From: an uncultured Parafilimonas sp.
GTDB lineage: Bacteria; Bacteroidota; Bacteroidia; Chitinophagales; Chitinophagaceae
Direction: 5' to 3'
DNA: 64,000 bases
NCBI GenBank assembly: GCA_937892395.1
Contig: CALAGJ010000111.1
Location: 2,039 to 66,038 of the forward strand
Both the position numbers and the translations under genes were made by a program. The notes beneath the pieces are model-generated. The model ran no database searches. It was given only the letters and a program-made list of their open reading frames with translations, and was not told the DNA's origin. Positions within the stretch are counted from its first letter, which is position 1. The number at the start of each line of letters is the position of its first letter. Positions 31,178-56,180 of the stretch are shown in pieces.

Positions 31178-31885
31178 CTATCTTTTAAATAGCCTTGTTT
31201 CTATTTTCTTAATGATATCATCTCTGTACGATTTGCCCAAAGGAAGTTTAAGTGTACCCATCAGTATTTCATTAGAATCTATAGCATCCACGGCTTGTAC
31301 ATTTACTATATAGGATTTATGAATGCGAAAAAATAAATCGCCAGGGAGTTTTTCTTCAATTCCTTTAAAGGTCAGATATGCTACATACTTTCGAAGGGCT
31401 GTGTGTATCACTACATAATTACTCATACTTTCTATATACTTAATCTCTGCGGTTGTTATTTTTTCCAATTTTTGATTGACCTTAATAAAGAAAAAATCTG
31501 TATTCGCATTGATTACAGTAGGGGATTTTTTTTGAAGAAACTCCTGTGCTTTTAATGCGGCTTTAAAAAATCTGGAGAAGCTAATGGGTTTCAATAAATA
31601 ATCCAATACCTCCAATTCAAAACCTTCTATGGCATATTGTGGATAGGCAGTTGTAAAAATAACTAAAGGAGGATTGGACAATGACTTTAAGAAATCGATG
31701 CCATTTAATTGTGGCATTTGAATATCTAAAAATATTAAGTCAATTGATTCTGTTTTAAGCAGGCTGGCAGCTTCAACCCCATTTTTACATTCTGCCACAA
31801 CAGATAAAAAATCAACTTGTTCTATGTGTTCTATGATACCCTTGCGGGCAATGGGCTCATCATCAATAACAAGGCATTTAATCAT
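31178..31885 (-). CDS. two-component response regulator, LytTR DNA-binding family
   Basis: Has a receiver domain (IKCLVIDDEP...DLIFLDIQMP) and a C-terminal LytTR domain (FFFIKVNQKLEKI...IHKSYIVN). Confidence 0.92.
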   Translation of the reverse strand: MIKCLVIDDEPIARKGIIEHIEQVDFLSVVAECKNGVEAASLLKTESIDLIFLDIQMPQLNGIDFLKSLSNPPLVIFTTAYPQYAIEGFELEVLDYLLKPISFSRFFKAALKAQEFLQKKSPTVINANTDFFFIKVNQKLEKITTAEIKYIESMSNYVVIHTALRKYVAYLTFKGIEEKLPGDLFFRIHKSYIVNVQAVDAIDSNEILMGTLKLPLGKSYRDDIIKKIETRLFKR

Positions 31886-31995
31886 TAAATTTTAATTTAA
31901 GTTTAAGCATTAGTTGATTCTTTAATTAGGAACAAATTAATTAGCAAAAAAGTATTGAAAACAATTCTACTTCATTTGATACTATTCATTAATTT

Positions 31996-33096
31996 TCAGG
32001 ATTGCAAGGAAAATTGATCGGCCGATTCATTCTTTGCAGTATTACTTATTCTAACCGAAGCGTTATACAAACCAATAACTAATATCACCTTAAATCTATT
32101 GTCCTCTTGTTTATTGGTCAATAAATGATTTCCGGGATAGAGTAGCTCCAATCTGCGTTTTAAATTCTTATATCCAATGCCACCACTATTCATCAGTAAT
32201 GCCGTTTTATGGCTTGTATTTTCTGTATTGGTTATTTGCGCTTGCAGTCTTCCTTGTATGTGCTCTAAACGAATATGTATTTCATTTTTTGAAGGCTCTT
32301 TATGATTGGATATATATTTAAAAGCATTCTCAATCAAGGGCTGTATGAGTAAAGGGGCAATATAAGAACCGCTCAATGCTTCGTCAATTTCCAATCGTAT
32401 ATCTGTGCCTTCTTCTAAGCGAAGGCTTTGCATTTGCACATAGTTTTTTATGTACTGCACTTCTCTTTCTATAGCTATTCGGTCATGCACACATTCATAC
32501 AATTGGTAACGCAGCATTTCACTCATTTTTTCAATTGAAGATCTGGCAGGTGCATTGGATTTGTCTATCTGAAAGTATATTGTATTCAACATATTGAACA
32601 GAAAATGCGGATTTATTTGTGCCCTCAAAAAATCAAGTTCTGTGCGCACTTTTTCTTTTTCTAATTTGAATCGGTCAGACATAATTTTAAGACCTCCACC
32701 TATAAAAATACATAACAGATTATTCCATACACCCATATAATAAACGTATAAAATATCCTCCTTTGGAGGAATGACAGATAGCCTGTTATCTACAAAATGA
32801 AGTATGAAGCGGATAAGCAGTATTTGACAGGGTACTAACAATATTAGAAGGAGTAAAAGCCCTGCTATTAATTGAAGATATTTTTTCTGATATAAAAAAC
32901 GGGGTACAAAATAGTATGCCGTTAAGTAAAACGGAATACAGGACGCAAGTGGTACCAATATAGACTGGCCTATATATAATTCATTATTATATGACGTATC
33001 ATAGTCAGTCACATAAAGGAAAAGACCAATCAAACACCAGAAAAAAACATGCAGCAGCTTGTAGTCAAATAACCATTTAGATAAACGAGTATTCAT
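31996..33096 (-). CDS. LytS/YehU-type sensor histidine kinase (membrane, His_kinase + GHKL ATPase)
   Basis: Has four or five N-terminal TM helices. LRAQINPHFLFNMLNTIY is the signature of the LytS-type phospho-acceptor. The C-terminal ATPase shows LIQPLIENAFKY and GGIGYKNLKRRLELLY. The start is set at ATG 33096. Confidence 0.88.
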   Translation of the reverse strand: MNTRLSKWLFDYKLLHVFFWCLIGLFLYVTDYDTSYNNELYIGQSILVPLASCIPFYLTAYYFVPRFLYQKKYLQLIAGLLLLLILLVPCQILLIRFILHFVDNRLSVIPPKEDILYVYYMGVWNNLLCIFIGGGLKIMSDRFKLEKEKVRTELDFLRAQINPHFLFNMLNTIYFQIDKSNAPARSSIEKMSEMLRYQLYECVHDRIAIEREVQYIKNYVQMQSLRLEEGTDIRLEIDEALSGSYIAPLLIQPLIENAFKYISNHKEPSKNEIHIRLEHIQGRLQAQITNTENTSHKTALLMNSGGIGYKNLKRRLELLYPGNHLLTNKQEDNRFKVILVIGLYNASVRISNTAKNESADQFSLQS

Positions 33097-33147
33097 ATTT
33101 CTGAATTGATGCAAACATCCTTCAATTGCATGACAAGGCAATTTTTT

Positions 33148-33199
33148 TTGTCAAGTAAAAACAGTTGTTTGTCAAGTATTTTTTATCACTTGTCAAGTA
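33148..33199 (+). promoter_or_regulatory. three perfect TTGTCAAGTA direct repeats with 21-bp phasing (predicted LytTR operator)
   Basis: Repeats at 33148-33157, 33169-33178 and 33190-33199. They lie in the divergent region between the kinase gene (33096, -) and the PPC-repeat gene (33262, +). Confidence 0.7.
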
Positions 33200-33226
33200 C
33201 AGCAAAAGGGTACAATTTCAGCTATA

Positions 33227-33234
33227 TACATTTG
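33227..33234 (+). promoter_or_regulatory. -7 box TACATTTG for the PPC-repeat gene
   Basis: TAnnTTTG match 27 nt upstream of ATG 33262 and 27 nt downstream of the third direct repeat. Confidence 0.45.
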
Positions 33235-33261
33235 AATTTGATAACAATAAAATCTGTAATT

Positions 33262-36200
33262 ATGCGTAAACATTTACTTTCATTGTTGCTACTTATCATT
33301 GTAAGTAGTAGCACAGCAAGGGCGGCTGAATCAGAGCCCAATGACACATGGAATACTGCGGATGTACTTACCGCAGGAGTTGCTCAAACCGGCACCATTA
33401 CTACATCTTCAGATATTGATTGGTTTAAACTGCGCATCAATCAAGATGGGCAAATTAATTTTTCCGGAGGTGCTACTACGACCGGGTGCCTCACCTTTCA
33501 ATTGTTTGATACATTAGGAACTATTGCCGTAAACGGTACTATCTTTAATTGTGGTGGCATTAGTAATCAGTCCACAAATGGGCTTGCCGCTGGTACTTTT
33601 TATCTGAAGATAATCTCTTCTGACAACAATGTCAATTATTCTTTTACACTCACACTCACAGCTGCTACACCAGCAATTGATACCGAACCCAATAATACTT
33701 TCTCCACTGCTATCACACAAGCACTGAATGGAAGCAACACAGGTCATTTAGGCTACTACTTTAATAATAAAAGAGATAGTATAGACTGGTATAAAATAGT
33801 TACTACTGCCAATGGTGCTTTAAAATTATCTTATACAGGCAATAGCGGCAACTGTGTCTATTTTCAATTGTTCGACAACAATGGTACTACAGCTTTAAAT
33901 GCAGAAGTATTTAATTGCGGAAGTACAAATAATCAGACCACTGATGGGCTTGCCCCAGGCACTTATTATGTAAGAATAAGACAGGGTAGTGGCAATGAAT
34001 TTGTTACTTATACCTTATCCAATAGTTTTATTGCACCTCCGGTGAATACTGACGCAGAGCCCAATAGTACCCGTGCTACAGCCAAAGTAATTCCACTCAA
34101 CGGCTCTGTAAATGGTCATATTGGTTACCGGTCAAACGGTGGATTGAGAGACACTTTAGACTGGTGGAAATTTACCACAAATGTAGCTGGCAAGGTGCAG
34201 ATATTCTATACAGGGAATAGTGGAGATTGTGCCTATTTCCAATTGTTTGACAACAATGCCACAACTGCATTATCTAATGAGGCATTTAACTGTGGCAGCT
34301 CAAATTCTCTTTCAGTCGATGGGCTAAATCCCGGTACCTATTATGTAAGAGTAAGACCTCAAAACAACACAACCAGTTTTGCAACTTACACACTCAAAGA
34401 CACACTCATACTTCCTCCCGTAAGTACTGACCCTGAGTCCAACAACACCGCTGTCCAAGCTGCTACAATAGCACAAAATGGCTCGGTTAATGGACAAATT
34501 GGATATTACTACAACGGTATTAGAGATACTTTGGATTGGTATAAATTGACAACAAATGCAGCAGGTGCTGTGAAGGTATTTTATACAGGCCTCTCCGGTA
34601 GTTGTGCTTACTTCCAGATGTTTGACAACAATACCACTACAGCAGTATCAAACGAAGCGTTTAATTGTGGCAGTACAAATTCTTTTACTGTCGATGGGCT
34701 TAATCCCGGCACCTATTTTATAAGAATAAGACCCGGCGATAATACAAGTCAATATGCTACATACACTTTAAAAGATACACTAATTTTACCGTTGGTGGCC
34801 CCTGATGTAGAACCCAATAATCAGCCAAGCCTTGCTGTTACAAAACTGGTAAATTCAACAGTAACCGGACAAGTAGGTTATTATTACAATGGCGTTAGAG
34901 ACACCGCAGATTGGTATAAAATAAATTTGCCATCCAGCGGCGGACTTCAGCTTCAATATACTGGCAATAGTGGTGGCTGTGCTTATTTTCAACTTTTTGA
35001 TACAGTTATCAATGGCATTCTTGCACCAAGAAATAATGAAGTATTTAACTGCGGAAGCACCAGCACGCAAAATACGGATGGCTTAGCCAATGGTACTTAT
35101 TATGTACGCATACGTCCGGGTACATTAGGTAGCGATATACCTTCTTATACATTAAAAGATACTTTGATTACCCTGCCCCCTGACAATGATAACAAACCAA
35201 ATGACAGACCATTTCAGGGTCAAACACTACCGGCTAACAATACAGTAACGGGCAATATTGGCTATAGTTTTAATGCCATGAGAGATAGTGCTGACTGGGC
35301 TCGTATCAACTACACCGGCTCTGGAAACTTGAACTTACAATTCTCATCACTATCAAGAGCATTTGCAGGGCCAACCTGTTTATATATCAAAGTGTATAGT
35401 GATACGAATGTAGCTCCTATCAATACAACATTCAATTGTGGAAGTACATCAAATATCAATCTTAGCGGGCTTACCCAAGGATATTATTATGTAAAAGTAG
35501 AAACGAGTAATCCTTCTGTCGACTTCGGCCAATACAGTCTTTCTAATTCTTTTGCCGAAGTTAATAAAGCAAGTATAACACTTGTAAGTAGTACACAACC
35601 TACAGATTGCAACCCTACAGGAGTACTAAGGGTGCAGTGTAGCGGAAGCAAAGCACCATATACACTACGCTTATTCCGTTTTGGTGTGTTAGATAGAGTA
35701 GTGCGAATCAACAATACTTCGCCCACAAATATTACAGGCTTATCCAATGGAATATGGACAGGCAGGGTATTTGGAGATGGCGCATCTGATACTGCTTTTG
35801 GTGTATTGGCAGCTGCTATACTTATGCCGGTACCAACGAGTTTAAGCACTACAAATATCACCAGTACACAGGCCAGGCTAAACTTTAGCAACTTTACACC
35901 TTGCATAGATGGCTATGGTATTCAATACAGGAAACTCGGTGACATACCTTGGATATTAGATACTGCCCGCCAGAGTCCATTTACTCTTCGTGGACTTACA
36001 TCGGCTACTACATACCAATGGCGTGTGGCCAGTGCTGATACGGCAAATGGACAAACAGCTGTAAGTGCTTTTTCAGCCATTGCACAGTTTACGACTGCGG
36101 GTTCATTGATGGTGGCGAACGATAGATCCGAAACAGAAAATGAACAAACTGTTGCTGGCTCTATTCAGGTATATCCAAATCCTGCCACACAGTTTTTCTC

Positions 36201-36411
36201 CATTCAATATGCAGGAAAAATAAAAGGAAAAATAGCTTGGACACTTACAGATGTAAATGGCCGTGTAGTACTTTCAAATATGGTAGATGCGGTACAAATC
36301 AGTAGTACCCGCATTTATGTAAACGCATTAGCCAAGGGCATTTATCAATTACAGCTTCGGGGAGCAGATGGAATGATAATAGCCACAGAAAAAGTTATCG
36401 TACAGCGATAG
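33262..36411 (+). CDS. giant exported protein: 6 tandem PPC (pre-peptidase C-terminal)-like domains + Cys-containing Ig-like module + Fn3 + T9SS type-A CTD
   Basis: Signal peptide MRKHLLSLLLLIIVSSSTARA. Six ~122-aa units each carry EPN(D/N)T..A, D.(L/A)DW(Y/F)K, YTGNSG.C.YFQLFDNN, FNCGS and GTYYVRIRP...YTL. These are followed by an Fn3-like segment (TSTQARLNFSN...TTYQWRV) and the CTD (VYPNPATQFFSI...VIVQR). The ORF-track start at 33106 overlaps the divergent kinase gene and is rejected. Confidence 0.85.
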   Translation: MRKHLLSLLLLIIVSSSTARAAESEPNDTWNTADVLTAGVAQTGTITTSSDIDWFKLRINQDGQINFSGGATTTGCLTFQLFDTLGTIAVNGTIFNCGGISNQSTNGLAAGTFYLKIISSDNNVNYSFTLTLTAATPAIDTEPNNTFSTAITQALNGSNTGHLGYYFNNKRDSIDWYKIVTTANGALKLSYTGNSGNCVYFQLFDNNGTTALNAEVFNCGSTNNQTTDGLAPGTYYVRIRQGSGNEFVTYTLSNSFIAPPVNTDAEPNSTRATAKVIPLNGSVNGHIGYRSNGGLRDTLDWWKFTTNVAGKVQIFYTGNSGDCAYFQLFDNNATTALSNEAFNCGSSNSLSVDGLNPGTYYVRVRPQNNTTSFATYTLKDTLILPPVSTDPESNNTAVQAATIAQNGSVNGQIGYYYNGIRDTLDWYKLTTNAAGAVKVFYTGLSGSCAYFQMFDNNTTTAVSNEAFNCGSTNSFTVDGLNPGTYFIRIRPGDNTSQYATYTLKDTLILPLVAPDVEPNNQPSLAVTKLVNSTVTGQVGYYYNGVRDTADWYKINLPSSGGLQLQYTGNSGGCAYFQLFDTVINGILAPRNNEVFNCGSTSTQNTDGLANGTYYVRIRPGTLGSDIPSYTLKDTLITLPPDNDNKPNDRPFQGQTLPANNTVTGNIGYSFNAMRDSADWARINYTGSGNLNLQFSSLSRAFAGPTCLYIKVYSDTNVAPINTTFNCGSTSNINLSGLTQGYYYVKVETSNPSVDFGQYSLSNSFAEVNKASITLVSSTQPTDCNPTGVLRVQCSGSKAPYTLRLFRFGVLDRVVRINNTSPTNITGLSNGIWTGRVFGDGASDTAFGVLAAAILMPVPTSLSTTNITSTQARLNFSNFTPCIDGYGIQYRKLGDIPWILDTARQSPFTLRGLTSATTYQWRVASADTANGQTAVSAFSAIAQFTTAGSLMVANDRSETENEQTVAGSIQVYPNPATQFFSIQYAGKIKGKIAWTLTDVNGRVVLSNMVDAVQISSTRIYVNALAKGIYQLQLRGADGMIIATEKVIVQR
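33328..35553 (+). repeat. intragenic tandem repeat: six ~366-bp units encoding the PPC-like domains
   Basis: Unit boundaries fall at ESEPND, DTEPNN, DAEPNS, DPESNN, DVEPNN and DNKPND. Units 2-5 are also clearly similar at the DNA level (for example TATTT(T/C)CAATTGTT(C/T)GACAACAATG...). Confidence 0.8.
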
Positions 36412-36434
36412 CATAGTTACAGTGCTAATTTAGG

Positions 36435-36460
36435 CGGCCCGCTTTTGCGGGCCGTTTTGT
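36435..36460 (+). terminator. rho-independent terminator
   Basis: Perfect 8-bp GC stem CGGCCCGC-TTTT-GCGGGCCG followed by TTTTGTT. It starts 24 nt after the stop at 36411. Confidence 0.88.
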
Positions 36461-36732
36461 TGGATATTGGAGGTATTGGATTTTTGTTTTTCTGATAATT
36501 AGGTTAAAGTGTCTGCAATTAGTTGCTTTATATCTTCAACCTCTAATAGTTTATGCCAACTGTTTATTGTTGCTGTCCAAAAGTAAATGAGGCCAATTTT
36601 TATGTAGGACTTCCGCCGCTGTTAGAAATGATTATCTTCCATATTTGTGTTATCTATTTCCGAGTAAAGTTAATGATAAGTTGATGACAGGTTCGTGAGT
36701 ACACGAGCCACGACCAGTAGGGGTTCATGTTG

Positions 36733-37135
36733 TTACGAACCATTGCGAAGTGAATTCTGACTCAAGTTATACGTGTTGCAATACACATAATAATAATCTT
36801 TTGTGAATTCATCAGCAAATGGGCCATTATTTACCCTGTGGGCAGAAAGGGAATTTATTAATTCTATGCTGTTCAATTTGCCGTCTGTCCGTAGTACTGA
36901 TATACTGTTTTGCAATTCTATTTTCAGGATTTCTGTCGAGAGTGTAAAGAACAAATAAGAAAGTCCATTCAAATGGTTTCATTAGTATATAAATAAAATC
37001 AGAAACAAACTTTTTATTAAAAATGTAGTAATACCGATGAATGTGGTACCCTACTTTATTGTATTGTCGCCTGACTAATCTGTGTAAGCAGGGAAATCTT
37101 TCTTGAATGAGTTCTTCAAAGGCATTTGATATCAA
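36733..37135 (-). CDS. hypothetical protein; two overlapping frames, possibly a frameshifted remnant
   Basis: ORFs 36827-37135 (102 aa, hydrophobic centre FVSDFIYILMKPFEWTFLFVLYTL) and 36733-36972 (79 aa) overlap in different frames. I recognised no family, and coding status is uncertain. Confidence 0.25.
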
Positions 37136-41622: not shown

Positions 41623-44600
41623 CTACTCCACTATCAATTTTTTTATAGAGGCCGCTTTACCATCCACCTGCACATATACCAAATACAGGCCTTTGGCAAA
41701 TCGGCTAAGGTCAATAGGGATTTTTTGGCCTGCGGCAATGTTGGATAGGGCTTGGTTATACACGGTTTTGCCTGTTATATCCCTTATGTTAATACCCATT
41801 TTTGCCGCCGATTGATCCATACGGATGGAGGTATGGTTTGTGGCGGGGTTGGGATATAACTGCCAATTTGGGTCTGAGGATTTTGCACTAATAGGCTCAG
41901 GCCCCCCACCATTATTATTGGAACTACTTATTTCCATCTTTATGCAAGGTTTACCGCCCCATGTTGTACAAGGAGTAATTAGACAGGCTGTGCTAAATGG
42001 CAGGACGGTAATATTTTCTTCGGCAAAGGGATCACTGTTTGCTGCACTGCCCGGGGCAGGGTATGCATAATAGCTTCTTGTATCTGCACTGTTGTCCGTA
42101 AAATAATCCGGCTTGTTGCCGATAAACACTTCTACCATCGCTACCTGTATGGTTGTGTTGGTGTCTGGCGCAACGGAGGTGTTGCTGATGATAATATCCC
42201 AGGGGCTGCTATTGGGCGCAGGTGCCCAGTAGCAGGTGCTGAATACTTGAGTAAACCAGCGCCTGCGGGCTGTGATATCTGTATTGGTGGTATCGTAGCG
42301 GTTTAACTCATCCCCCTTAATCTGACCGTTTGCTCCCAATAAGCCAAAAATGAACTTGCTGCCAGTGGTATCGAACCCCCCATTATACACACTGCTACCA
42401 AACCAGGTGATGGCTATATAGGTGGTGGTGTTTGGCAAATTGCGGATGCTGTCTTTCATTTCTGCGCTGAGTTTAATAAAAATGCTGTTTGCTTTCTGAT
42501 TAAATACGCTATTGGGATTGCCCGCCAAAGCGGTGCTTACTATACCCTTGCTAAAGCGGCCAAAGGGACTGAATTTGTCTATGATTTCTGTAGTGTCTTC
42601 TTTTGCTTTGCCGATGATATTGTAGTAGCCAATTTGTTTTATTTTATAATCTACAGAAGAACCTAATGTGTCCACTTCCTGCATGGTGAGTTTGGTGCTG
42701 CTGCCGCTCCTGATGATGGCTGCATCATTGTCCGTGGTTACAAACCAGCCCACATCATTTTTACCTGCGCCGTTCGTGTTGTACTGGTTGCCTGCACCGC
42801 CCTGTGCTATATCGGATACGGACTGCACGGTGTTTTGATTATAAATATTTGAGGCGCCCAGGTTTCTGTTGGTGGCTATTTTTTCACAATATTTTTCGCC
42901 ATTATAGTTGCCATTTGCCGTGCCGCCATCATTGGTGCTGTTTACTTTCTGCTTTTGGGTGTTATTGCCATTGTGCACTGAAAAATCTTCTGTGGCAAAG
43001 CGAATGGTATCTGCCGCATCTAAACCGTCTTTAAAAGCAAGATAACTGCCCGGGAAGCTTTTGGGTATATCATTGTTGGAATAATCATAATCCTTTACAT
43101 GCTGATTAAAGAAGGTGAATACCTTGCCATTGGCTGTGTCAATGAACTGTGTGCGTGCCTGGTCTACAAAAGTGATCATGTTGATGTATTGAATCCAGTA
43201 ATCCAATCCAAAATCAAGGGCGCTGGTGGATGTGGCAAAGAGGTGACGGGGCCGCTGGCGCAATACATTTATATCGTAAAAACCTCCGGGCTTATAATCG
43301 GTGTAATAATCGAGGTTGGTATTATTCCAGTCGCACTCATCCCGGTAGCGTATTACACCGCCATTGCTGCCCCGTGTGGATTTGGCGACGCTGTCCTTTA
43401 ACTGATCATATTTAAGCCTGCGGTACATATCCCGGTAATTCTTGCCAAAGTTCATATTGTACAGATGCCCGCCCTCTGGTGGCTTGCGCCAGCTTTGGTG
43501 CAGGTATTTCATAATGGAATCGGGGGTATTACTCCAACTGCTGCCATTGTAACTTCTGCCAAACCAGTTTCTGGTGAGGCGTTGTGTATTAGTGCAGCTA
43601 TTGGCGCTGCTGTCAAGCGCCTTAGTAGATACAGGCCAGAGAAAATAAGATTCTGATGAAGGTTTGGTAAAATCAACGGCTACCGTGCGGGGCAGGTTAT
43701 TAAGCCCGGGATTGTTGTCGGCTACTTTTTTGCCCCATACCTTGGTGCCATTGCCACCGTTGAGCAGCAGGTGCATATTGGGCAGGGGCCGGGTGGCATA
43801 GTTGGCGGTGCCCGCAGGGCCATTGAGCTTATATAATGCATTGGCAAGCCAGCCCCAGTGCTTACGGACAAATATGGGCCACTCGGTTTCTAAATCTATA
43901 TCATCGGACAGATCCATGTTTACATTTGTTGAGTCGGTGGGTGATTCTATAATTCTGCCATCACCATCCCAGGGGCGTAAATCGCCGGTGCTTCCTTCTC
44001 CCACTTGTATAAAGAGGAGCCTTTCTTTTATCTTTTTATTAGTGGCAATAGTTTCCCAGTTGTTGGCGACTGTGCCGCTGGTTTTGAGATTGCATAAATA
44101 GCTGATGATGCGGTAGAGAAAATTGCGATAGTAATATTCATATTTTGTTTCTGCTAAGTTATCGCTTGTATAGCCGAAGCGACCATAATCATCATCTTTA
44201 TAAACACTGTCGGAGGTTTGCGCAGAAGTGACACCGGGCATTTTTACATAATCGGGGTAGGCTCCGGGGTAATTGTTTAGATAACTGCCGCTCACTCTGC
44301 GGCCCTTGTCGAGGTAATCGGGGTAGTAGCGAACATTAGTGCCACTGCCTGTTTTAACTCGTTTAATGCCGGCCTCCTTTAACCAGTATGGCATTTCTGT
44401 GTTATCTGGTATTCCTATGGGCGCCCACTGACCGGTCCATATTTCTATACCATAGGCTTTTATATTATTTGTATTGACCACCGTCTTGATGGCATCGTAA
44501 AAATCTTTGTACCGGATCAGGTCATTACCACCTGAGTTGTAATTGGGCATGTCACCTTTGTCATTTTTATTGTACTGTAAATAATTCCAGGCAAACACAA

Positions 44601-44907
44601 CTATGGCCCCTTTAATATAATCCGGTTGAATAGTTTGCGCCATGTTGGTGAGGCCCTGGGGAGGATTGGAACTGCCGCTGTTGTTATAAACAGGAGCAAA
44701 AAAACTACTATCCGCATATTGGGCGGATGCACTGCCATTGGCAAACATAAGGGTGGATTCTGCAACACCGTTGGAGTCAATCTTGTATGGGAAAAATGCC
44801 CATACACCACGGGCTTCTAACTCAAGATTGGAAATGGGGGTGCTTTGTGTGTGAACCTGTGTGAGGAAGCATACTGTTAAGAACAGTAAAGAGATTTTTT
44901 TTAGCAT
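41623..44907 (-). CDS. large exported protein of unknown function with T9SS type-A CTD
   Basis: 1094 aa with signal peptide MLKKISLLFLTVCFLTQVHTQ. The C-terminus LYPNPATNHTSIRM...KKLIVE is a T9SS CTD. I could not assign the N-terminal ~900 aa to a family; they may be glycoside-hydrolase-like. Confidence 0.7.
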   Translation of the reverse strand: MLKKISLLFLTVCFLTQVHTQSTPISNLELEARGVWAFFPYKIDSNGVAESTLMFANGSASAQYADSSFFAPVYNNSGSSNPPQGLTNMAQTIQPDYIKGAIVVFAWNYLQYNKNDKGDMPNYNSGGNDLIRYKDFYDAIKTVVNTNNIKAYGIEIWTGQWAPIGIPDNTEMPYWLKEAGIKRVKTGSGTNVRYYPDYLDKGRRVSGSYLNNYPGAYPDYVKMPGVTSAQTSDSVYKDDDYGRFGYTSDNLAETKYEYYYRNFLYRIISYLCNLKTSGTVANNWETIATNKKIKERLLFIQVGEGSTGDLRPWDGDGRIIESPTDSTNVNMDLSDDIDLETEWPIFVRKHWGWLANALYKLNGPAGTANYATRPLPNMHLLLNGGNGTKVWGKKVADNNPGLNNLPRTVAVDFTKPSSESYFLWPVSTKALDSSANSCTNTQRLTRNWFGRSYNGSSWSNTPDSIMKYLHQSWRKPPEGGHLYNMNFGKNYRDMYRRLKYDQLKDSVAKSTRGSNGGVIRYRDECDWNNTNLDYYTDYKPGGFYDINVLRQRPRHLFATSTSALDFGLDYWIQYINMITFVDQARTQFIDTANGKVFTFFNQHVKDYDYSNNDIPKSFPGSYLAFKDGLDAADTIRFATEDFSVHNGNNTQKQKVNSTNDGGTANGNYNGEKYCEKIATNRNLGASNIYNQNTVQSVSDIAQGGAGNQYNTNGAGKNDVGWFVTTDNDAAIIRSGSSTKLTMQEVDTLGSSVDYKIKQIGYYNIIGKAKEDTTEIIDKFSPFGRFSKGIVSTALAGNPNSVFNQKANSIFIKLSAEMKDSIRNLPNTTTYIAITWFGSSVYNGGFDTTGSKFIFGLLGANGQIKGDELNRYDTTNTDITARRRWFTQVFSTCYWAPAPNSSPWDIIISNTSVAPDTNTTIQVAMVEVFIGNKPDYFTDNSADTRSYYAYPAPGSAANSDPFAEENITVLPFSTACLITPCTTWGGKPCIKMEISSSNNNGGGPEPISAKSSDPNWQLYPNPATNHTSIRMDQSAAKMGINIRDITGKTVYNQALSNIAAGQKIPIDLSRFAKGLYLVYVQVDGKAASIKKLIVE

Positions 44908-45136: not shown

Positions 45137-45678
45137 ATGAAGAAAACGCATTATCTGTTTGCATCCATTCTTTACATAGTAACGGTTACCGGTGCTTACG
45201 GCCAATCCTGGAATTTTTTAGAAAAAGTGGTACAACCTAAAAGGATAGCTAATGATGTGTTTAGCCAGTCTGTTGCAATAGAGGGCGATTATACAATGAT
45301 TGGCTGCTGGAGGGATAACTATGATCAAACCGGGGGTGGAATTTTCTTGAAGAAGCAGGATCGGTTTATTTATAACAAAAATCGGCAGAAGGGTTATGGA
45401 CACTGATTAAAAAAATAGTGGCATCAGACAGAACCCTCTATGATGCATTTGGCTTTGATGTGGCCATGGATGGCAATTATGCTGTAATAGGTGCGCCATT
45501 TGAAGGCTTGGGCGATGTGGAAAGTGCAGGCGCTGTTTATGTATTTGAAAACAGGGATAGCGTGTTTACAGAGGTAAAAAAATTATTTGCGCCAGACCGG
45601 GAGTATCTCAATCAGTTTGGCTGGAAGCCGGATATATCGGGTGATTGGATATTGGTAGGAGTATCCTTAGAAAGGTGA
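45137..45678 (+). pseudogene. frameshifted and truncated FG-GAP/beta-propeller-repeat exported protein
   Basis: Two ORFs in different frames (45137-45406 and 45418-45678). The first has a signal peptide plus FSQSVAIEGDYTMIGC. The second reads KKIVASDRTLYDAFGFDVAMDGNYAVIGAP...AGAVYVF, which is consecutive FG-GAP-like blades. It ends after ~180 aa with no C-terminal domain. Confidence 0.65.
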
Positions 45679-49593: not shown

Positions 49594-50298
49594 TTACCGA
49601 ATGGTAATATCCATGTAGTGCTCGGCGTCTTTATATTGCGAATTTTTTACATTTTGTTTCCTTTGTATCTGCTTCAAAGCGTATCCAATATTTACCAATG
49701 CGCCATTTTCTCCATATTGGAAATAAATCGGACAATCAATTTTAGATATATCGGTACCCTCAGTGCAATTAATATCATCTGGGTGAGGCATTTTGGGTAA
49801 ATTATTGGAGTTTAATGGAAGATACAGATTTGGGAACTGGTCTTTCCATTGATTTACTTTTTGAGTTAAAGATTCGGAAATTATTTTATTGTGAATTGCA
49901 TCAAAATATCCTTCAAATAGATATAAGGTTTGCGAAATGATGTAAAATTTGTATCTATCTCATATCAGGAATTTTTCAATTGCAAATAACTGATTTTCTT
50001 TAAAAGATTTCATTGGCGTAGAAATGGCATTTATAAATTTAATTTTTCCCTTATTTGAATGAGCCAATGACAGAGCAAGACTTCCACCTTCACTTGGCCC
50101 ATGTATTCCAATCTTAGTAATATCAACAAAATTTTGTGATAGCTACCTGTTGCATTTAATACTTGAACTTATATTTTGTAAAATATTGTAAGCATTAGCG
50201 TATGACAACTTAATATACTAACCCTTACATTTGTATGATTTACAAAAAGACAAGCGTTTCTTTGTTATAGAGTTAATCTTTGAGACAGAATAAGTAAA
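49594..50298 (-). pseudogene. decayed alpha/beta-hydrolase (dienelactone hydrolase / peptidase S9-like) gene
   Basis: A single - strand frame reads ...SYANAYNILQNISSSIKCNR*LSQNFVDITKIGIHGPSEGGSLALSLA...FLI*DRYKF...YKDAEHYMDITIR*. It has the nucleophile elbow G-x-S-x-G (HGPSEGG) and a C-terminal His. It is interrupted by in-frame stops at 50218-50220, 50143-50145 and 49960-49962, and the N-terminus is missing. Confidence 0.7.
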
Positions 50299-50801
50299 TC
50301 TTTATGCCGTTTTACATGAAAGCATTCCCAATTTACACTTTAGGAAGTCAAATAGAAATCTGTTTTGTGTAAAATAAATGGTGAATACTTTTTTTGCGGT
50401 GATACAATTAATTCTGAATCTTATGAGTTATTTTCAATTTCCACAGTTGGTGTCAAAATATTGGTAGAAAGAGACAAGTTTTTTTAAGTTCCTATTGGAA
50501 TACAATAAGGGTTGTCAATGGCAAATGTCTATATCCGGATTTCTATTCAGGCAATTTTTGCGTACCTAATTTGAAATTGCATTGAGCGTAGAGATTGGAG
50601 CCATGATTGATTTATTTTAAAACCATTCTGAACTCAAATTATATTTTCGATAGTTTCCCATATGGAGTCTTACTCGATTTAAATGCTTATGGTTTTACCG
50701 ATAGGTGTATTCTAGTATGAACACAAAAAACATAACGCCTCGAATAAGAATTAACCAGAAAAATGAATATGTGCAGAATTTGTAAAATTTTTTGACTCTA
50801 A

Positions 50802-50831
50802 TAAAAAAAGGCTGCCCTTTTAAGACAGCCT
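50802..50831 (-). terminator. rho-independent terminator of the PPC-repeat paralog
   Basis: On the - strand, the hairpin AGGCTGTC-TTAAAAG-GGCAGCCT is followed by TTTTTTA. It begins 27 nt after the stop at 50858. Confidence 0.7.
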
Positions 50832-50857
50832 CTATTGATGATAGTAAATTCCTACAC

Positions 50858-53263
50858 TTACCTCGTTACAATAATTTTTGTATTACTTACCATACCAGCT
50901 GCATTAATCACTTGCAGGGTATATATTCCTACACTTAGCTTGCTTACATCCACCATCCGGTTGTTTAATGCAGATGAAGGCACTTGTGAAGCAGACCATA
51001 CCCATTTGCCGTAGGCATCCAAAAGCATTGCTGACAATTGTTCTTCCTTTGCTCCTTTGAGTACAATTCGAAAAACATTTACAGCAGGATTTGGAAATGC
51101 TGAAATGCTGATGTTACTTGACTTTGCCACAGCCATATCTGTGCTACTACCATAATTATTTGCTGCTATAGCCAATGAACTTGTGGTAGTAAACTGATCA
51201 ATAGCAGAGAAAGCACTTAATACATAGTTCGTGAATGTATCCACGCCAACACCTACTGCTACACGCCATTGGTAAGTAGTAGCAGCAAGCAGTCCTGAAA
51301 TGCGCAAACTATCCTTATTGCCCAATACTATTTTTTGAGACCAAGGTGTAGTACCGAGTTTGCGCCATTGTACTACATAGCCATTTGCACAACTCACACT
51401 GTTATACCTAACTGTAGCTGCTGTAGATTTGATATTTGTTTCTGATGTAGTTGTGGTGGCCGGTGGCAATAAGCTTTTTGTATTGCTTGTACCAAAAGCC
51501 GTACCTGTAGCTCCATCACCAAAGGCGGTGGCATAGTAAATACCCGGAGGTAGGTTACTGGCAGTAAATCCTGAGGTAAGGTTAGTCGTATAGGTTGCAT
51601 ATAAAGCTCCAAAGCGATACAATTTTACTGTATAAGGTGCACTGCTTCCACCACCTGTCATTTGAAGTTGTCCATTTGAACATCCATTGCTTGTAGCTGT
51701 GGTGATGGTGATATTTGCAATATTTACTTGCGTAAAAGTATTGCTGATACTATATGAGCTAAAATCAGTAAAATTGCCAGTGTAATAAGTAAATACCTTA
51801 ACATAATAATACCCTTGTGTAAGCGATGTTAGATTGATGTTTCCACTGGTACTATAGAAATAATTGGAATAGATTGGAGCAAGAGCTGTGTCTTTATACA
51901 CTTGCATCCATGTAGGAGGGGCAGATCCTATTTTTAATCGATTCTCCTGATTAAAATTAATTGTCATATTACCACTACCGGTATAGTTAATTTTGAAAAT
52001 ATCTACATTATCTCTTGACCCAGAACCATAAAAACTTATATGACCGGTTACAGAACCATTAGCAGGTATTGTTTTAGCTTGGCTGTACAATTCGTTGGGC
52101 TCAGCATCCCCAGCATTCGTATAAAAAGTACATGTATTTGAGAGTGTATAGGGGGCCCATTCAGAGGTATAATAAGTTCTAACCCTCACGTAGTAAGCAC
52201 CTTGCTTCAATCCATCAATATCCACCACAGTACCATTACCCGTGGTATAGCTACCAGTTATATAGGTAGAACCATCCGTATCAAATAATTCTGCCCACAC
52301 ATTTTGACCATTGCCTGATGCCATATTTAATTGCAATCTACCATCTGCTGTTGTTGTTATTTTATACCAATCTTCCCCATCCTTTTGATTGTTATAGTAA
52401 TAATTTACATGCCCCTGCTTGCTTCCATTTAAAGGAAGCGTGAGTGCCTGAGCTGCCGTACTATTTGGTTCTACATCATTTGATTCTGTGGCATAAAAAA
52501 CGCTATCAGACAATGTGTAGGGGGCCCATTCAGAGCCATAATAAGTTCTGACCCGCACATAGTATGTTCCTGCTGATAGGGCATCTTTATTGACTACAAA
52601 TGAAGTACCTGTTGTATAACTGCCTGCTAAAAGTGTTACCCCATCATTATCAAATAATTCTGCCCATACATTCTGACCATTTCCAGATGTCATAGTAAGG
52701 CGAATTCTGCCATCTGATGTTGTTGTTATTTTATACCAATCTGCACTATCTTTTTGGGTATTGTAATAATAGTTTATATGGCCAGTTTTTGTGGCATTGA
52801 CAGGTAATACTTTAGCTTGTGCTTTTGTTCCGTTTTGCTCCACATCATTTGCCTGTGTTGGTGAAGTGAGTGTATTAGAAATAGAATAGGCTCCTGTTTC
52901 TGTACCATAATATCCATTTACTCTGATATAATATGTACCCGCTGCAAGCCCATCTTTATTTAAGGTAAAAGTTGCAGTTGAGTAGGTTGAATTGAGCAGC
53001 GTAGTGCCATCATTATCAAAAAGATAAATCCACACATTTTGACCTGCTGGAGGTGTAAGTGAAATGCTAATTTTACCATCATTTGTGGTGATTAGCTTCC
53101 ACCAATCTTGATCACCGGCAGGGCTTAACGATCCATTATCGCTGCCATTCAACATTAGAGTATTTGCCGAATTTCGGTCATTGTTCGGTTCGGATTCTGC
53201 AAAGGCATATTGCCCGCATATCAAAACAGAAACAAAAAATAAGAGTAGGAATTTCTGTTGCAT
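50858..53263 (-). CDS. exported protein, paralog of 33262-36411: 4 tandem PPC-like domains + Cys-containing Ig-like module + Fn3 + T9SS type-A CTD
   Basis: Signal peptide MQQKFLLLFFVSVLICGQYAFA. Has four ~122-aa units (ESEPNN, DVEQNG, DVEPNS, DAEPNE). The last unit and the downstream modules are collinear with the other paralog (INYTGSGN, LTQGYYYVKV, SAPYT(V/L)(K/R)L(Y/F)RFG, TTYQWRVA). CTD: AFPNPAVNVFRI...KIIVTR. Confidence 0.85.
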   Translation of the reverse strand: MQQKFLLLFFVSVLICGQYAFAESEPNNDRNSANTLMLNGSDNGSLSPAGDQDWWKLITTNDGKISISLTPPAGQNVWIYLFDNDGTTLLNSTYSTATFTLNKDGLAAGTYYIRVNGYYGTETGAYSISNTLTSPTQANDVEQNGTKAQAKVLPVNATKTGHINYYYNTQKDSADWYKITTTSDGRIRLTMTSGNGQNVWAELFDNDGVTLLAGSYTTGTSFVVNKDALSAGTYYVRVRTYYGSEWAPYTLSDSVFYATESNDVEPNSTAAQALTLPLNGSKQGHVNYYYNNQKDGEDWYKITTTADGRLQLNMASGNGQNVWAELFDTDGSTYITGSYTTGNGTVVDIDGLKQGAYYVRVRTYYTSEWAPYTLSNTCTFYTNAGDAEPNELYSQAKTIPANGSVTGHISFYGSGSRDNVDIFKINYTGSGNMTINFNQENRLKIGSAPPTWMQVYKDTALAPIYSNYFYSTSGNINLTSLTQGYYYVKVFTYYTGNFTDFSSYSISNTFTQVNIANITITTATSNGCSNGQLQMTGGGSSAPYTVKLYRFGALYATYTTNLTSGFTASNLPPGIYYATAFGDGATGTAFGTSNTKSLLPPATTTTSETNIKSTAATVRYNSVSCANGYVVQWRKLGTTPWSQKIVLGNKDSLRISGLLAATTYQWRVAVGVGVDTFTNYVLSAFSAIDQFTTTSSLAIAANNYGSSTDMAVAKSSNISISAFPNPAVNVFRIVLKGAKEEQLSAMLLDAYGKWVWSASQVPSSALNNRMVDVSKLSVGIYTLQVINAAGMVSNTKIIVTR
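51734..53197 (-). repeat. intragenic tandem repeat: four ~366-bp units encoding PPC-like domains
   Basis: Units 2 and 3 retain long near-identical DNA stretches 369 nt apart (for example TAGGGGGCCCATTCAGAG at 52148-52165 and 52517-52534). Confidence 0.8.
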
Positions 53264-53311
53264 AATAAATAATTTTATACTGCAAAAGGAAGCCTTGTAA
53301 GAGCCTCAGGC

Positions 53312-53332
53312 AATAATCCATTTGGATAGTTT
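53312..53332 (-). promoter_or_regulatory. 21-nt element AAACTATCCAAATGGATTATT (as read on the - strand), 7-2-7 inverted heptamers; predicted NarL/LuxR-type operator, copy 1
   Basis: Identical to 55450-55470 when read toward the downstream gene. It lies 48 nt upstream of the ATG of the PPC-repeat paralog (53263, -). Confidence 0.6.
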
Positions 53333-53458
53333 TATCTCTTATCCTAAAAATGAACTTTAAAAAACTAAAACCAAAGATATCTGAGATTGTTGCTAAATTT
53401 GTGTTGGAAAGATTCGAACAGATTTTTAGCTTTTTCTTCACTAATCAGATCCCACCCA

Positions 53459-55420
53459 ATGAAAATAAAAATTGTTCTGCTTACGTTATTTTGTGCTGTG
53501 CAACTGGCTGCACAAACAACTATTACAGATAGTATTAGAAATGTAATTTTTTCGGGAAAAGATAAATCACAAAAACTATCAGCCATACTCGATTATTTGG
53601 ATCAATACCAAAGTCTAAATATAGACACCGTTTATAACTATGCACTTATAGCCATGGAAATGGCGGCTAAATCCAATGACGTTAGGAGCATGGCAAGAGC
53701 AGAACTCGCATTTGCAAATGCCTACGCTGTATGGGGCTGGGGCGATAGCGCACAGGCTGTATGTGATATGGCTTTAAAAAAATATGATGCCTCAAATGCT
53801 ATCACAAGAGATGTATATTTTAAACTATTGCGACAGAAAGCTTTGTGCTACGGAGGCGTACAAAAAAATCCGGAGGCCCTAAATATTTTGTACAAACTCT
53901 TAAATGAAACAAAGCAATACAAAGACTCCATTGCAACTGCCACCACATACAATACAATTGGTTCTGTATACTTAAATATGAGCAAACCGGATGAGGCATT
54001 GAAGTGGATCAATGCTGCATTAGTTTATGACACTAAGCATGAAAAATTTATTGCTGCTAAAGCTGCTGTTTATGTAAACTTGGCTTATTCTTATTTACTC
54101 AAAAATGATAATCAAGCAGCCAAAAAATTCATCGATAAGGCAGTACCCATTTGCCGACAGGCCCAAAATCTAAATACGCTTGCTACTGCACTCCGCATTA
54201 GTAGCATGATACTTGTAAATCTCAAAAATAATGATGCAGGAGAAGTGGATTTGAGAGAAATGGTAAAGATCAGACATGTATTAAGCAGTGGCTCCAATAT
54301 ATCTGAAGACAATCTTCAAATTGCCCATTTCTACGCCAACACAGGACAATTGAATAAAGCCATTGAGTATTGTAAGGAATGCTTAAAAAGTGGAAATGTG
54401 CAAAACAGTGCTGATACTACATCGTATTCAAATCATTTGAGTATAAAGCTGGATTATTATCAAGCACTTGCAGAATTTTATAAACAAGCTGGCAAGTCAA
54501 ATGAATACACAAATACACTTGAAGCAATCATCAATGCAAAAGATTCTTTTTATGCAGACAACAGTGCTCAAGCCATTGCAGAAATGCAGACCAAATATGA
54601 AACAGAACAAAAAGAAAAAACAATCATCCAACAGAAATATGACCTCACAAAAAAGAATGTACTGCTTTATGGTTCGGGTTTATTTTTCATACTGATTTCA
54701 ATCATCCTCTTCCAATTATTTAAATCCTATAAACGGAGGCAAAAAATAAAAATGGACATTGCGTTAGCAGAAGAGCATACTGCAAAACAGCTTGCCGTAA
54801 AAACGGCAGAAGAAAATGAACGCAAAAGAATAGCCGCAGACTTACATGATAATTTAGGTGTTCAGGCAAACGCAATTTTACACAATTCTGAACTATTGAA
54901 AAATGAATCATCTGAGCATGAAGACATTGTAGATGATTTGCACGACACGGCAAAACTCATGCTGCTCAACCTCAGAGAAACACTCTGGGCAATGAAATCA
55001 AATGACTTAGAAGCCGCAGAATTATGGCTTCGTGTCATCAGTTTTTCAAAACAAATGGGCAGACATTATGCGCAAATAAAATTTTCGATAACAGGCACTG
55101 CACCTGATCATTTTTTATTGCCTTCGGCAATGGCATTAAATATTGTAATGATTGTACAAGAAGCTGTGCACAATGCAGTCAAGCACAGTAATGCAGATAA
55201 AATTCAGCTCGCATCCAACATCGAAAATTTTTTGTGGAATATATCTGTGTCTGATAATGGCAAAGGATTTGACCTTGATACTGCCTTATCAAAAAAAAAT
55301 AGTTACGGATTAAAAAATATGATGGAGCGGGCAGCAACTTATGGACTGAAAATTGATTTCGACAAGAATGATACAACTGGGTCTATCATCAAAATTTATA
55401 TTCAAGAAAATAAAAAATAA
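53459..55420 (+). CDS. TPR-repeat sensor histidine kinase (HisKA_3 + HATPase_c, NarX/DesK-type)
   Basis: Has signal/TM MKIKIVLLTLFCAVQLAAQ, a ~370-aa TPR-like sensor region and a second TM (LLYGSGLFFILISIILFQLF). The H-box is ERKRIAADLHDNLG, and the ATPase shows QEAVHNAVKHS and DNGKGFD...GLKNMMERA. The start is set at ATG 53459. Confidence 0.88.
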   Translation: MKIKIVLLTLFCAVQLAAQTTITDSIRNVIFSGKDKSQKLSAILDYLDQYQSLNIDTVYNYALIAMEMAAKSNDVRSMARAELAFANAYAVWGWGDSAQAVCDMALKKYDASNAITRDVYFKLLRQKALCYGGVQKNPEALNILYKLLNETKQYKDSIATATTYNTIGSVYLNMSKPDEALKWINAALVYDTKHEKFIAAKAAVYVNLAYSYLLKNDNQAAKKFIDKAVPICRQAQNLNTLATALRISSMILVNLKNNDAGEVDLREMVKIRHVLSSGSNISEDNLQIAHFYANTGQLNKAIEYCKECLKSGNVQNSADTTSYSNHLSIKLDYYQALAEFYKQAGKSNEYTNTLEAIINAKDSFYADNSAQAIAEMQTKYETEQKEKTIIQQKYDLTKKNVLLYGSGLFFILISIILFQLFKSYKRRQKIKMDIALAEEHTAKQLAVKTAEENERKRIAADLHDNLGVQANAILHNSELLKNESSEHEDIVDDLHDTAKLMLLNLRETLWAMKSNDLEAAELWLRVISFSKQMGRHYAQIKFSITGTAPDHFLLPSAMALNIVMIVQEAVHNAVKHSNADKIQLASNIENFLWNISVSDNGKGFDLDTALSKKNSYGLKNMMERAATYGLKIDFDKNDTTGSIIKIYIQENKK

Positions 55421-55449
55421 GCTTTTAAAAAGTCAGTTTAAAATAACAT

Positions 55450-55470
55450 AAACTATCCAAATGGATTATT
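55450..55470 (+). promoter_or_regulatory. 21-nt element AAACTATCCAAATGGATTATT, copy 2 (predicted NarL/LuxR-type operator)
   Basis: Lies 44 nt upstream of the response-regulator ATG (55515) and about 20 nt upstream of a near-consensus -7 box, GATATTTG (55492-55499). Confidence 0.6.
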
Positions 55471-55514
55471 ATTCATAGTTTCACAATGTTTGATATTTGC
55501 TTTAAAATAAAAAT

Positions 55515-56180
55515 ATGATTCGTACTGCCATTGTAGATGATAAATTGAGCAACCGTACTGTATTAAAAGATAAAGTGAGTCGCAATTCATTTTTCAATAT
55601 TGTGTTGGAAGCTACAAACGGAAGCACTTTTTTAGACAGTATGAAAAAATTGTCGGAAGATGATTTGCCACATATAGTTTTAATGGATATCGAAATGCCG
55701 GAAATGGATGGAGTGGCTGCTATTGGTACGGCGTCGTCTTTATATCCTTCTGTAAAGTTTGTGGTGCTGAGCATTTTTGATGATGATGATAAAATATTCA
55801 GGGCCATAAAAGCAGGTGCATGTGGTTATATATTAAAGGAAGAAAGCGGTACCGTCATCTCAGAAATGCTCCTCAATTTATGGGAAAGTGGCGCAGGCCC
55901 CATATCGCCAAGCATTGCCTATAAAATTTTACAAATGGTTAAAAAACCATTAACCATAAAAGAAGAAAACATAGCGGCGCAAGAGGTATTTCATTTATCT
56001 GAAAGAGAAAGAGAAATATTACAACTGTTGAGTCAGGGTTTGGAGTATAAAGAAATTGGCAACAGTATATTCATTAGCCCAAATACGGTAAAAAAACATT
56101 GTATCAATATTTATCATAAACTACATGTAAATAGTAAGGCCCAGGCTTTGAGAATTGCATATACAAAGGGTTTGATATAA
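55515..56180 (+). CDS. two-component response regulator, NarL/FixJ (LuxR-type HTH) family
   Basis: Has a receiver domain (IRTAIVDD...IVLMDIEMPEMDG) and a C-terminal LuxR HTH (LSEREREILQLLSQGLEYKEIGNSIFISPNTVKKHCINIYHKL). Confidence 0.92.
   Translation: MIRTAIVDDKLSNRTVLKDKVSRNSFFNIVLEATNGSTFLDSMKKLSEDDLPHIVLMDIEMPEMDGVAAIGTASSLYPSVKFVVLSIFDDDDKIFRAIKAGACGYILKEESGTVISEMLLNLWESGAGPISPSIAYKILQMVKKPLTIKEENIAAQEVFHLSEREREILQLLSQGLEYKEIGNSIFISPNTVKKHCINIYHKLHVNSKAQALRIAYTKGLI

Follow-up and report, generated by a model that had tools for sequence, protein, structure and literature searches.

What are secreted proteins built almost entirely of pre-peptidase C-terminal (PPC) domains for, and why does each of two such proteins lie next to a different kind of two-component system (TCS)? 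The question is raised by a 64-kb stretch of DNA (the window) on contig CALAGJ010000111.1 of an uncultured Parafilimonas sp., in which an earlier note had pointed out two cassettes, each with a TCS divergent from a large PPC protein (A in cassette 1, B in cassette 2). Both cassettes consist of real open reading frames (ORFs), and searches with Pfam and NCBIfam profiles recovered their domains (Table 1). We consider it on balance probable that the adjacent TCS have the PPC-array proteins as their dedicated transcriptional outputs and that these, exported by the secretion system of type IX (T9SS), serve as multivalent surface binding arrays. Judged from sequence, the cassettes are a real and uncharacterised regulated surface-protein system found across the Chitinophagaceae of soil and freshwater. 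The observation made in the earlier note is confirmed, and its interpretation is supported, by the analysis below.

BLASTP aligned A and B end to end with 38% identity across 806 aa (E 7e-146), and from this alignment the two are paralogs, as had been proposed. Their repeats do belong to the PPC family. The PF04151 profile (gathering cutoff 25.9 bits) gave 78 bits for A, with four stretches passing alone, and 72.7 bits for B, with three. Cutting at the ExEPN motif yielded six units in A and four in B, all ten of which are mutually alignable; the unit numbers of the earlier note therefore stand, but the terminal INYTG-type unit that it had counted in addition is already included in them. Every unit of A carries a Cys pair (GxC...FNCG), and the units of B have no Cys. 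A type-A T9SS C-terminal domain (CTD) closes both proteins, with TIGR04183 scores of 82.5 bits (A) and 68.9 bits (B) against a cutoff of 23 bits and PF18962 scores of 86 and 78 bits against 27 bits. By eye, the putative signal peptides of A and B show typical n-h-c regions (MRKHLLSLLLLIIVSSSTARA/AE and MQQKFLLLFFVSVLICGQYAFA/ES).

The predicted Fn3 domain exceeded the profile threshold in A only (E 9e-9); in B it scored below, and is supported there by the alignment to A and by an AlphaFold2 (AF2) model. In this model of the last 422 residues of B (pLDDT 81.5), a PPC jelly roll, a small beta-sandwich, the Fn3 domain, a disordered linker and a separate beta-sandwich CTD follow one another in a beads-on-a-string layout, for which Foldseek returned only generic multi-Fn3/Ig receptors with low TM-scores. 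The module between the array and Fn3, described earlier as Cys-containing, was found in 109 of 120 homologs and is duplicated jointly with Fn3 in eight. A special cysteine-dependent module was rejected. In isolation it matched no Pfam family even at E=10, 37 homologs gave weak Ig/prealbumin-like matches only, and an AF2 model of the module alone (pLDDT 84) retrieved only generic Ig/Fn3 folds from Foldseek (best E 4e-3). It is a plain Ig/Fn3-like beta-sandwich. Identity with a SprB repeat was rejected as well, on the generic Ig/Fn3 matches and the absence of a Pfam family.

The sole solved structure detectable by sequence was 5IKU, the tandem Ca2+-dependent collagen-binding domains (CBDs) s3a-s3b of the collagenase ColG from Hathewaya histolytica (E 2e-4). 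The alignment pairs two successive units of B with the two ColG CBDs, which share with them the motifs ExEPN(D/N) and DxxD(W/Y) and a GxYY strand. ExEPN(D/N) and DxxD, which we take to be Ca2+-site residues in ColG, occur in all regular PPC units of A and B, and each unit also has a conserved DNDG-type loop. The PPC domains of collagenases are substrate-binding modules that bind insoluble collagen (PMC6168687). From this role and the homology to 5IKU, A and B are probably strings of CBD-like, Ca2+-binding modules without a catalytic domain. The likeness to ColG extends to the tandem head-to-tail arrangement and the acidic inter-domain junctions. ColG, however, carries two CBDs on a catalytic module and PKD domains, whereas here four to six units, with no catalytic domain, are followed by Ig-like, Fn3 and T9SS CTD regions; ColG is a clostridial secreted enzyme, while A and B would be Bacteroidota surface cargo for which collagen binding is not predicted. 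The repeats have thus not turned out to be a family whose function is already known, as the nearest relative, the ColG CBD, offers a generic binding role and none for arrays free of catalytic domains.

Among 60 members of the ~917-aa class, mean pairwise identity per column is 0.5-0.66 in the PPC array and 0.27-0.47 in the stalk and CTD. A conserved stalk with variable binding tips was rejected, since the array is better conserved than the stalk. As the best-conserved part, the array would be the functional business end, and it probably binds a conserved, repetitive ligand multivalently.

The same features would also suit a structural or ionic role, in which the arrays form an on-demand Ca2+-binding coat or a Ca2+-bridged aggregation factor of flocs or biofilm matrix. 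The acidic ExEPN(D/N)...DxxD pattern, aligned with that of the ColG CBD, is retained in every unit, as is the DNDG-type loop, and the units are highly conserved within a protein and within the family, as for a generic physico-chemical role. Tandem beta-sandwich repeats rigidified by Ca2+ are known from RTX and other fibrillar adhesins (PMC7493085; bioRxiv 10.1101/2020.12.07.414375). A and B resemble these in being beta-sandwich strings that would project from the surface, with probable Ca2+ sites at the junctions. RTX adhesins, on the other hand, are substrates of the type I secretion system with a distinct adhesive tip on spacers, whereas here the repeated PPC units, the best-conserved part, are the likely binders. 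We hold a purely structural role to be unlikely, because a generic coat has no obvious need for several paralogs each placed under a different sensor.

The sensors do differ. Only the PPC genes are paralogous between the cassettes; the two signalling pairs are of unrelated families, as had been stated. TCS 1, divergent from A, combines a PF06580 kinase with a receiver-LytTR regulator and is of the LytS/LytTR type. TCS 2, divergent from B, pairs a HisKA_3 and HATPase_c kinase with a receiver-GerE regulator and is of the NarL/FixJ type. At its N-terminus kinase 1 has three hydrophobic helices; a large periplasmic domain is lacking. In kinase 2 the hydrophobic helices at residues 5-23 and 400-418 flank a TPR region of ~375 residues, which is therefore predicted to be periplasmic. 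The best NCBIfam matches of regulator 1, BtsR and LytR, both fell under the equivalog cutoffs, so that it is a member of the family and not an ortholog of either. Kinase 2 matched the FimS model NF053520 over residues 144-628 with 42.9 bits against an equivalog cutoff of 600, and by this score is not a FimS ortholog. FimS/FimR of Porphyromonas gingivalis, a TPR-bearing HisKA_3-type kinase and its regulator, control fimbriae, a surface adhesive structure. The likeness lies in a TPR HisKA_3 kinase pair that controls, or here would control, a surface structure in a member of the Bacteroidota; the output there is type V pili, whereas here it would be the adjacent T9SS cargo gene, of a family that is also wired to LytTR systems. 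The window holds only two TCS, as far as found, and these flank its only two PPC genes, which argues against chance adjacency.

We found that the linkage is conserved well beyond this genome. Protein B, searched against 5.8 billion proteins, gave 443 matches at E<1e-10, and most of the best 120 cover 97-100% of it. The named matches are nearly all from Chitinophagaceae (Panacibacter, Parafilimonas, Limnovirga, Foetidibacter, Ferruginibacter), with the exception of one protein (P0109) from a 'Williamsia' metagenome-assembled genome, and in the databases they carry no more than generic names ('T9SS type A sorting domain-containing', 'pre-peptidase C-terminal domain-containing'). With one genome taken per GTDB species and the C-terminal module as query, a scan supplied 47 loci, all from Chitinophagales bar one probably mis-binned contig. 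This contig (L045, JADCRZ010000149.1, 2107 bp) was assigned to 'Williamsia sp.' (Actinomycetota); it codes for a PPC-array protein of the Chitinophagaceae type and is most likely a binning contaminant. In an exhaustive profile search with the C-terminal module, giant Fn3-repeat proteins crowded the results, and of the best 150 representatives only some 30 match the module as a whole. T9SS proteins that combine several PPC domains with other sets of domains are common in metagenomes of Bacteroidota, so that this family is not alone in having PPC arrays.

The six-frame ORFs of the 47 loci were searched with the four signalling proteins of the window; as the genes of these loci are stop-to-stop ORFs matched by phmmer, locus counts are approximate. 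Informative loci, those with enough sequence on the upstream side, number 38; by inspection, about 28 of them have a kinase and its regulator directly upstream of the PPC gene. A strict automated criterion (kinase and regulator both within 4 kb), which misses pairs with a 3-kb kinase, found it in 22 of 36. Among more distant relatives, a kinase-regulator pair precedes the PPC gene in relatives of A at 54% identity and in a distant one at 33%, and not in one at 36%. Stray regulator-like ORFs in the other flank number about four in ~420 kb (hand tally; nine by the automated count before module-linked ones were removed), and the flanking genes vary between loci.

Four arrangements occur. The first is a divergent LytS-type kinase and LytTR regulator, as in cassette 1; orthologs of regulator 1 (290-360 bits) adjoin PPC genes in L006, L007, L008, L010, L041, L048 and L051. 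The second, as in cassette 2, is a divergent TPR kinase with a NarL-type regulator. In the third, the regulator class of cassette 2 is combined, divergently or co-directionally, with a kinase of ~1000 aa bearing propeller/Y_Y_Y domains. In the fourth, a TPR kinase and a regulator of a second NarL-type class precede the PPC gene co-directionally; this order was confirmed with precomputed Pfam annotation in Panacibacter ginsenosidivorans and on an Ilyomonas chromosome, where the flanking genes are unrelated. A LytS/LytTR pair and a NarL-type pair stand side by side in L022, L023 and L026. The TCS class is incongruent with the PPC phylogeny in a rough neighbour-joining tree of the PPC-protein C-termini, and this suggests that the sensor input has been swapped repeatedly while one TCS per PPC gene was kept. 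Such a pattern fits a common output whose regulatory input can be exchanged.

Does each regulator have a site before its PPC gene? Upstream of A, three exact copies of YTTGTCAAGTA form direct repeats with a 21-bp period, in keeping with LytTR operators, whose direct repeats of ~10 bp stand about two helical turns apart; the 64-kb window has one other match with up to one mismatch. A degenerate fourth copy, ATGACAAGGCA, lies just upstream (~33130). The last repeat ends 62 bp before the ATG of A, and a Bacteroidota-type -7 box, TACATTTG, can be read ~30 bp downstream of that repeat. The earlier note had stated that each promoter region holds repeats of the type expected for its own regulator class. 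This proved right for the LytTR repeats of cassette 1; cassette 2 has only an imperfect inverted repeat and not the palindrome that its class typically has in relatives, the canonical NarL-type palindromes sought upstream of B being absent. In a hand alignment, the degenerate core of the inverted repeat, CAACACAAATTTAGCA, matches TACTACAAATTGAGTA at 11 of 16 positions. In regulator 2 the recognition helix is TVKKHCINIY, whereas 12 relatives of its class have TVRKHIANIY, apart from conservative I/V and A/S changes; regulator and site may thus have diverged together.

Scans over 829 kb of the related loci plus the window revealed three operator types that, by motif, match the three regulator classes: LytTR direct repeats of 21-bp period, TACTACAAATTGAGTA and TACCCAAnnTTGGGTA. 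They lie almost exclusively upstream of PPC genes and TCS genes, and PPC genes without an adjacent TCS are included, which fits regulon membership. LytTR repeat pairs occur 24 times in the 829 kb against about seven in shuffles that kept mononucleotide composition only; 17 of the 24 stand at LytS-kinase starts or in PPC upstream regions, and four of these are PPC-only cases. In every LytTR-class locus except L048, where an insertion separates them, two repeats with 21-bp spacing lie ~55-70 bp from the kinase start. They are kept also at loci with nothing divergent opposite, so that autoregulation of the LytTR systems is likely. Repeat pairs 113-137 bp upstream of PPC genes without an adjacent LytS kinase were found in L016, L020, L022 and L026.

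For the NarL-type classes, two 16-bp palindromes emerged. The first, TA(C/A)TACAAATT(G/A)AGTA, mostly stands 50-135 bp upstream of the point where the PPC ORF starts; exact copies of the form TAMTACAAATTRAGTA number 13, and 12 of these are located upstream of PPC genes. The second, TACCCAAnnTTGGGTA, was scanned as TACCCAANNTTGGGTA and gave 13 matches, again 12 upstream of PPC genes. Both palindromes are present also at PPC genes lacking an adjacent TCS, namely in L027, L032, L035, L037, L039, L042, L047 and L048, with TAMTACAAATTRAGTA itself in L037, L039, L042 and L047. Additional copies of TACTACAAATTRAGTA fall exactly at the kinase/regulator junction in L012 (7103), L036 (5384), L049 (5213), L038 (955), L030 (7910) and L033 (7920), which suggests an internal, autoregulated promoter of the regulator gene. 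The operator type tracks the recognition helix of the regulator, TVRKH(I/V)(A/S)N(I/V)Y going with the first palindrome and ERTVETHRKNIY with the second. Of the 50 PPC genes, no fewer than 32 have an operator of some type. Three carry two types: TACCCAAnnTTGGGTA and a LytTR pair stand together before one PPC gene in L016 (~6235-6405), L026 (~8512-8701) and L048 (~9304-9487), where two different systems may converge on one gene. All these class-specific operators upstream of PPC genes support the proposal that the arrays are individually wired to dedicated sensors.

We propose the following course of events. Each sensor kinase would detect its own cue, through a membrane-embedded LytS-type sensor, a periplasmic TPR region or, in relatives, propeller/Y_Y_Y domains, and would phosphorylate its regulator. 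The regulator would then bind the class-specific operator before the PPC gene and switch the gene on; an activating rather than a repressing effect is what we assume here. It probably also binds before its own operon. The PPC product would leave the cell by Sec and then the T9SS. Ordinarily, type-A cargo loses its CTD by cleavage and is anchored through the new C-terminus; by analogy, the CTD would be cut off here and the protein tied to the surface by its C-terminus. Outward from the surface one would meet Fn3, the Ig-like spacer and, outermost, the string of four or six PPC domains, whose junctions probably bind Ca2+. The array would act as a multivalent binder of a polymer or surface outside the cell and would amount to an adhesin, or surface binding protein, that can be induced.

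Several observations weigh against this proposal. In most loci of the LytTR class, it is the spacing between repeats and kinase start that stays constant, not that between repeats and PPC start, and there the repeats could serve autoregulation only. None of the three canonical operators is present at cassette 2 of the window. That the array is better conserved than the stalk speaks against variable, ligand-specialised tips. The tyrosines that we take to be the collagen contacts of ColG seem, by eye, only partly kept in the PPC units, which makes collagen unlikely as the ligand. Finally, the window contains no T9SS machinery gene; its four other CTD-bearing genes imply a T9SS-proficient host.

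Known systems offer partial parallels. In polysaccharide utilization loci of Bacteroides, SusR or hybrid two-component sensors control surface binding proteins of the SusD/E/F type. The cassettes share with these Sus-type loci a dedicated periplasmic sensor per locus, surface binding proteins as the presumed product, and many paralogous loci per genome. They differ in having no SusC/SusD or glycoside hydrolase, in using classical two-protein TCS instead of hybrid sensors, and in the predicted export by the T9SS instead of lipoprotein sorting. The coupling of a type-A CTD cargo to a TCS has a precedent in P. gingivalis, where the CTD of PorA binds PorY and activates PorXY-SigP (PMC12152298). 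PorA thus provides the input as the ligand of PorY, whereas the upstream operators described here point to the cargo as output.

This precedent suggests another explanation, namely that the cargo or its CTD in transit is the ligand or co-sensor of the adjacent kinase and reports polymer capture or export status, with regulation of the PPC gene as a feedback loop. The ~375-residue periplasmic TPR of kinase 2 is a protein-binding fold, and the tight, conserved linkage of cargo and sensor fits interacting partners. We find this quite unlikely, as closely related PPC proteins are linked to unrelated sensors (LytS, TPR, propeller/Y_Y_Y), which is hard to reconcile with an obligate partnership, PPC genes without an adjacent TCS keep their operators, as fits membership of a regulon, and the LytS-type kinase lacks a sizeable periplasmic domain. 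Improbable, too, is the fuller version in which the module is a trans-envelope signalling device, the surface PPC array capturing an insoluble polymer and its occupancy or export state being relayed to the cognate kinase; if true, it would carry the PorA-PorY principle beyond the housekeeping of secretion into the sensing of the environment, over many channels running in parallel within one genome.

The arrays might instead be substrate-targeting partners of secreted hydrolases that attach to insoluble substrates, protein or polysaccharide, tethering the cell or recruiting the enzymes. Single PPC domains fused to proteases play a substrate-binding role, and the match to 5IKU and the collagen binding of collagenase PPC domains agree with such a function. 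The kinases of some relatives, moreover, have TPR_SusR-like (weak) or Reg_prop/Y_Y_Y sensor domains, of the kinds that detect glycan breakdown products in Bacteroides. However, neither in the window nor among the relatives do proteases or glycoside hydrolases accompany the cassettes with any consistency, and we judge the hydrolase connection decidedly improbable. That the adjacency is coincidental, the TCS regulating other genes and the PPC genes being mere neighbours, is barely credible and strongly disfavoured: Bacteroidota genomes do carry many LytTR and NarL systems, and the GntP permease fragments downstream of regulator 1 or the small membrane-protein genes downstream of regulator 2 are possible other targets, but the linkage holds in some 28 of 38 loci despite differing flanks and three gene orders, the operators are nearly confined to PPC and TCS genes, and the GntP gene is apparently broken.

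Taken singly, the components are all familiar: PPC/CBD domains, type-A cargo of the T9SS, and two-component systems of the LytTR and NarL types. As had been supposed, the class seems undescribed, for full-text literature searches returned no description of a PPC-array/TCS module. As far as these searches show, what is new is the use of PPC arrays free of catalytic domains as T9SS cargo, their one-to-one and interchangeable linkage to TCS, and the three operators that mark the regulon. The regulation of T9SS cargo is poorly understood outside Porphyromonas and Flavobacterium. If the arrays are outputs of the adjacent TCS, as we favour, three regulator classes, each with a defined operator, would act almost exclusively on one cargo family. 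The Chitinophagaceae, a group abundant in soil, in freshwater and in activated sludge, would thus have a regulon that spans the family and can be tested. The loci would supply ready operator-regulator pairs, among them a case in which recognition helix and operator covary in nature, and a route to what Chitinophagaceae sense and bind. PPC domains are put forward here as free-standing multivalent surface binding arrays and not as protease appendages. Should the cargo also feed back on the sensors, this would be a new kind of surface-to-cytoplasm signalling.

Table 1. Features of the two cassettes and of other genes in the window.
Feature	Position	Strand	Details
Response regulator 1	31178..31885	-	receiver + LytTR; 235 aa; Response_reg E 1e-21, LytTR E 1e-19 (Pfam)
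Sensor kinase 1	31996..33096	-	LytS/YehU-family membrane kinase; 366 aa; ATG at 33096; His_kinase PF06580 E 7e-23
LytTR-type operator	33147..33199	+	three direct repeats YTTGTCAAGTA at 33147, 33168, 33189; 21-bp period
PPC-array protein A	33262..36411	+	1049 aa; real ORF
A, putative signal peptide	33262-33327	+	n-h-c regions, by eye
A, six PPC units	33328-35556	+	each with Cys pair
A, Ig-like module	35557-35838	+	
A, Fn3	35833-36096	+	fn3 profile
A, type-A T9SS CTD	36169-36405	+	TIGR04183/PF18962
PPC-array protein B	50858..53263	-	801 aa; real ORF
B, type-A T9SS CTD	50867-51109	-	TIGR04183/PF18962
B, Fn3	51188-51448	-	alignment to A + AF2 model; followed by disordered linker
B, Ig-like module	51452-51730	-	
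B, four PPC units	51731-53197	-	without Cys
B, putative signal peptide	53198-53263	-	n-h-c regions, by eye
Imperfect 18-nt inverted repeat	53392..53430	.	GCTAAATTTGTGTTGGAA / TTCGAACAGATTTTTAGC; B/kinase-2 intergenic; candidate diverged NarL-type operator
Sensor kinase 2	53459..55420	+	signal/TM helix + TPR (predicted periplasmic) + second TM helix + HisKA_3 + HATPase_c; 653 aa; Pfam TPR_12/TPR_8, HisKA_3, HATPase_c
Response regulator 2	55515..56180	+	receiver + GerE/LuxR (NarL-type) helix-turn-helix; 221 aa; Pfam Response_reg, GerE
GntP-family permease fragments	30284-31137	-	ORFs of 115 + 160 aa; profile positions 21-103, 117-261 of 440
Apparent gene remnant, DUF6688	36827-37135	-	102-aa ORF; C-terminal part of DUF6688 only; just downstream of A
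T9SS cargo gene	41623-44907	-	1094 aa; type-A CTD; no other recognisable domain
Apparent gene remnants, FG-GAP repeats	45137-45678	+	two short ORFs
Three further T9SS cargo genes	7453-9312; 12972-15875; 58259-60169		two with type-A CTD, one PKD/SprB-repeat with type-B CHU_C

The window contains six T9SS cargo genes, and a TCS adjoins only the two PPC-array genes; none was found next to the other four (7453-9312, 12972-15875, 41623-44907, 58259-60169). The cargo gene at 41623-44907 has a G+C content of 0.47 (measured over 42001-44000), against ~0.34-0.40 around it. Directly downstream of the LytTR regulator, the two GntP-family fragments, which match consecutive parts of the profile, are apparently pieces of one broken transporter gene. 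A scan of the window with Rfam gave no match, and a tRNA scan found none.

The closest locus, L008 (CAXYYO010000011.1, 3-11605), has a cassette 1 with ~80% protein identity to that of the window. Only 0.7 kb after it comes a second cassette of TPR kinase, NarL-type regulator and PPC gene, a tight tandem layout that recurs in L052. In the window, the two cassettes are 14.4 kb apart, and the second is inverted and much more diverged. A simple inversion relative to L008 is unsupported, as the second cassettes share only ~40% (TCS) and ~57% (PPC) identity and nothing downstream matches. The apparent DUF6688 and FG-GAP remnants suggest past rearrangement in the 14 kb between the cassettes. In several loci a second PPC-array gene without a TCS of its own follows in tandem (L006 ~12084-14612, L007 12036-14681, L022 8780-11626, L031 11132-13150, L040 8822-12355), that of L006 being broken into several ORFs. 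Proteins identical to those of the window are present in the SRA/ENA assemblies SRR14932526 and ERZ650283.

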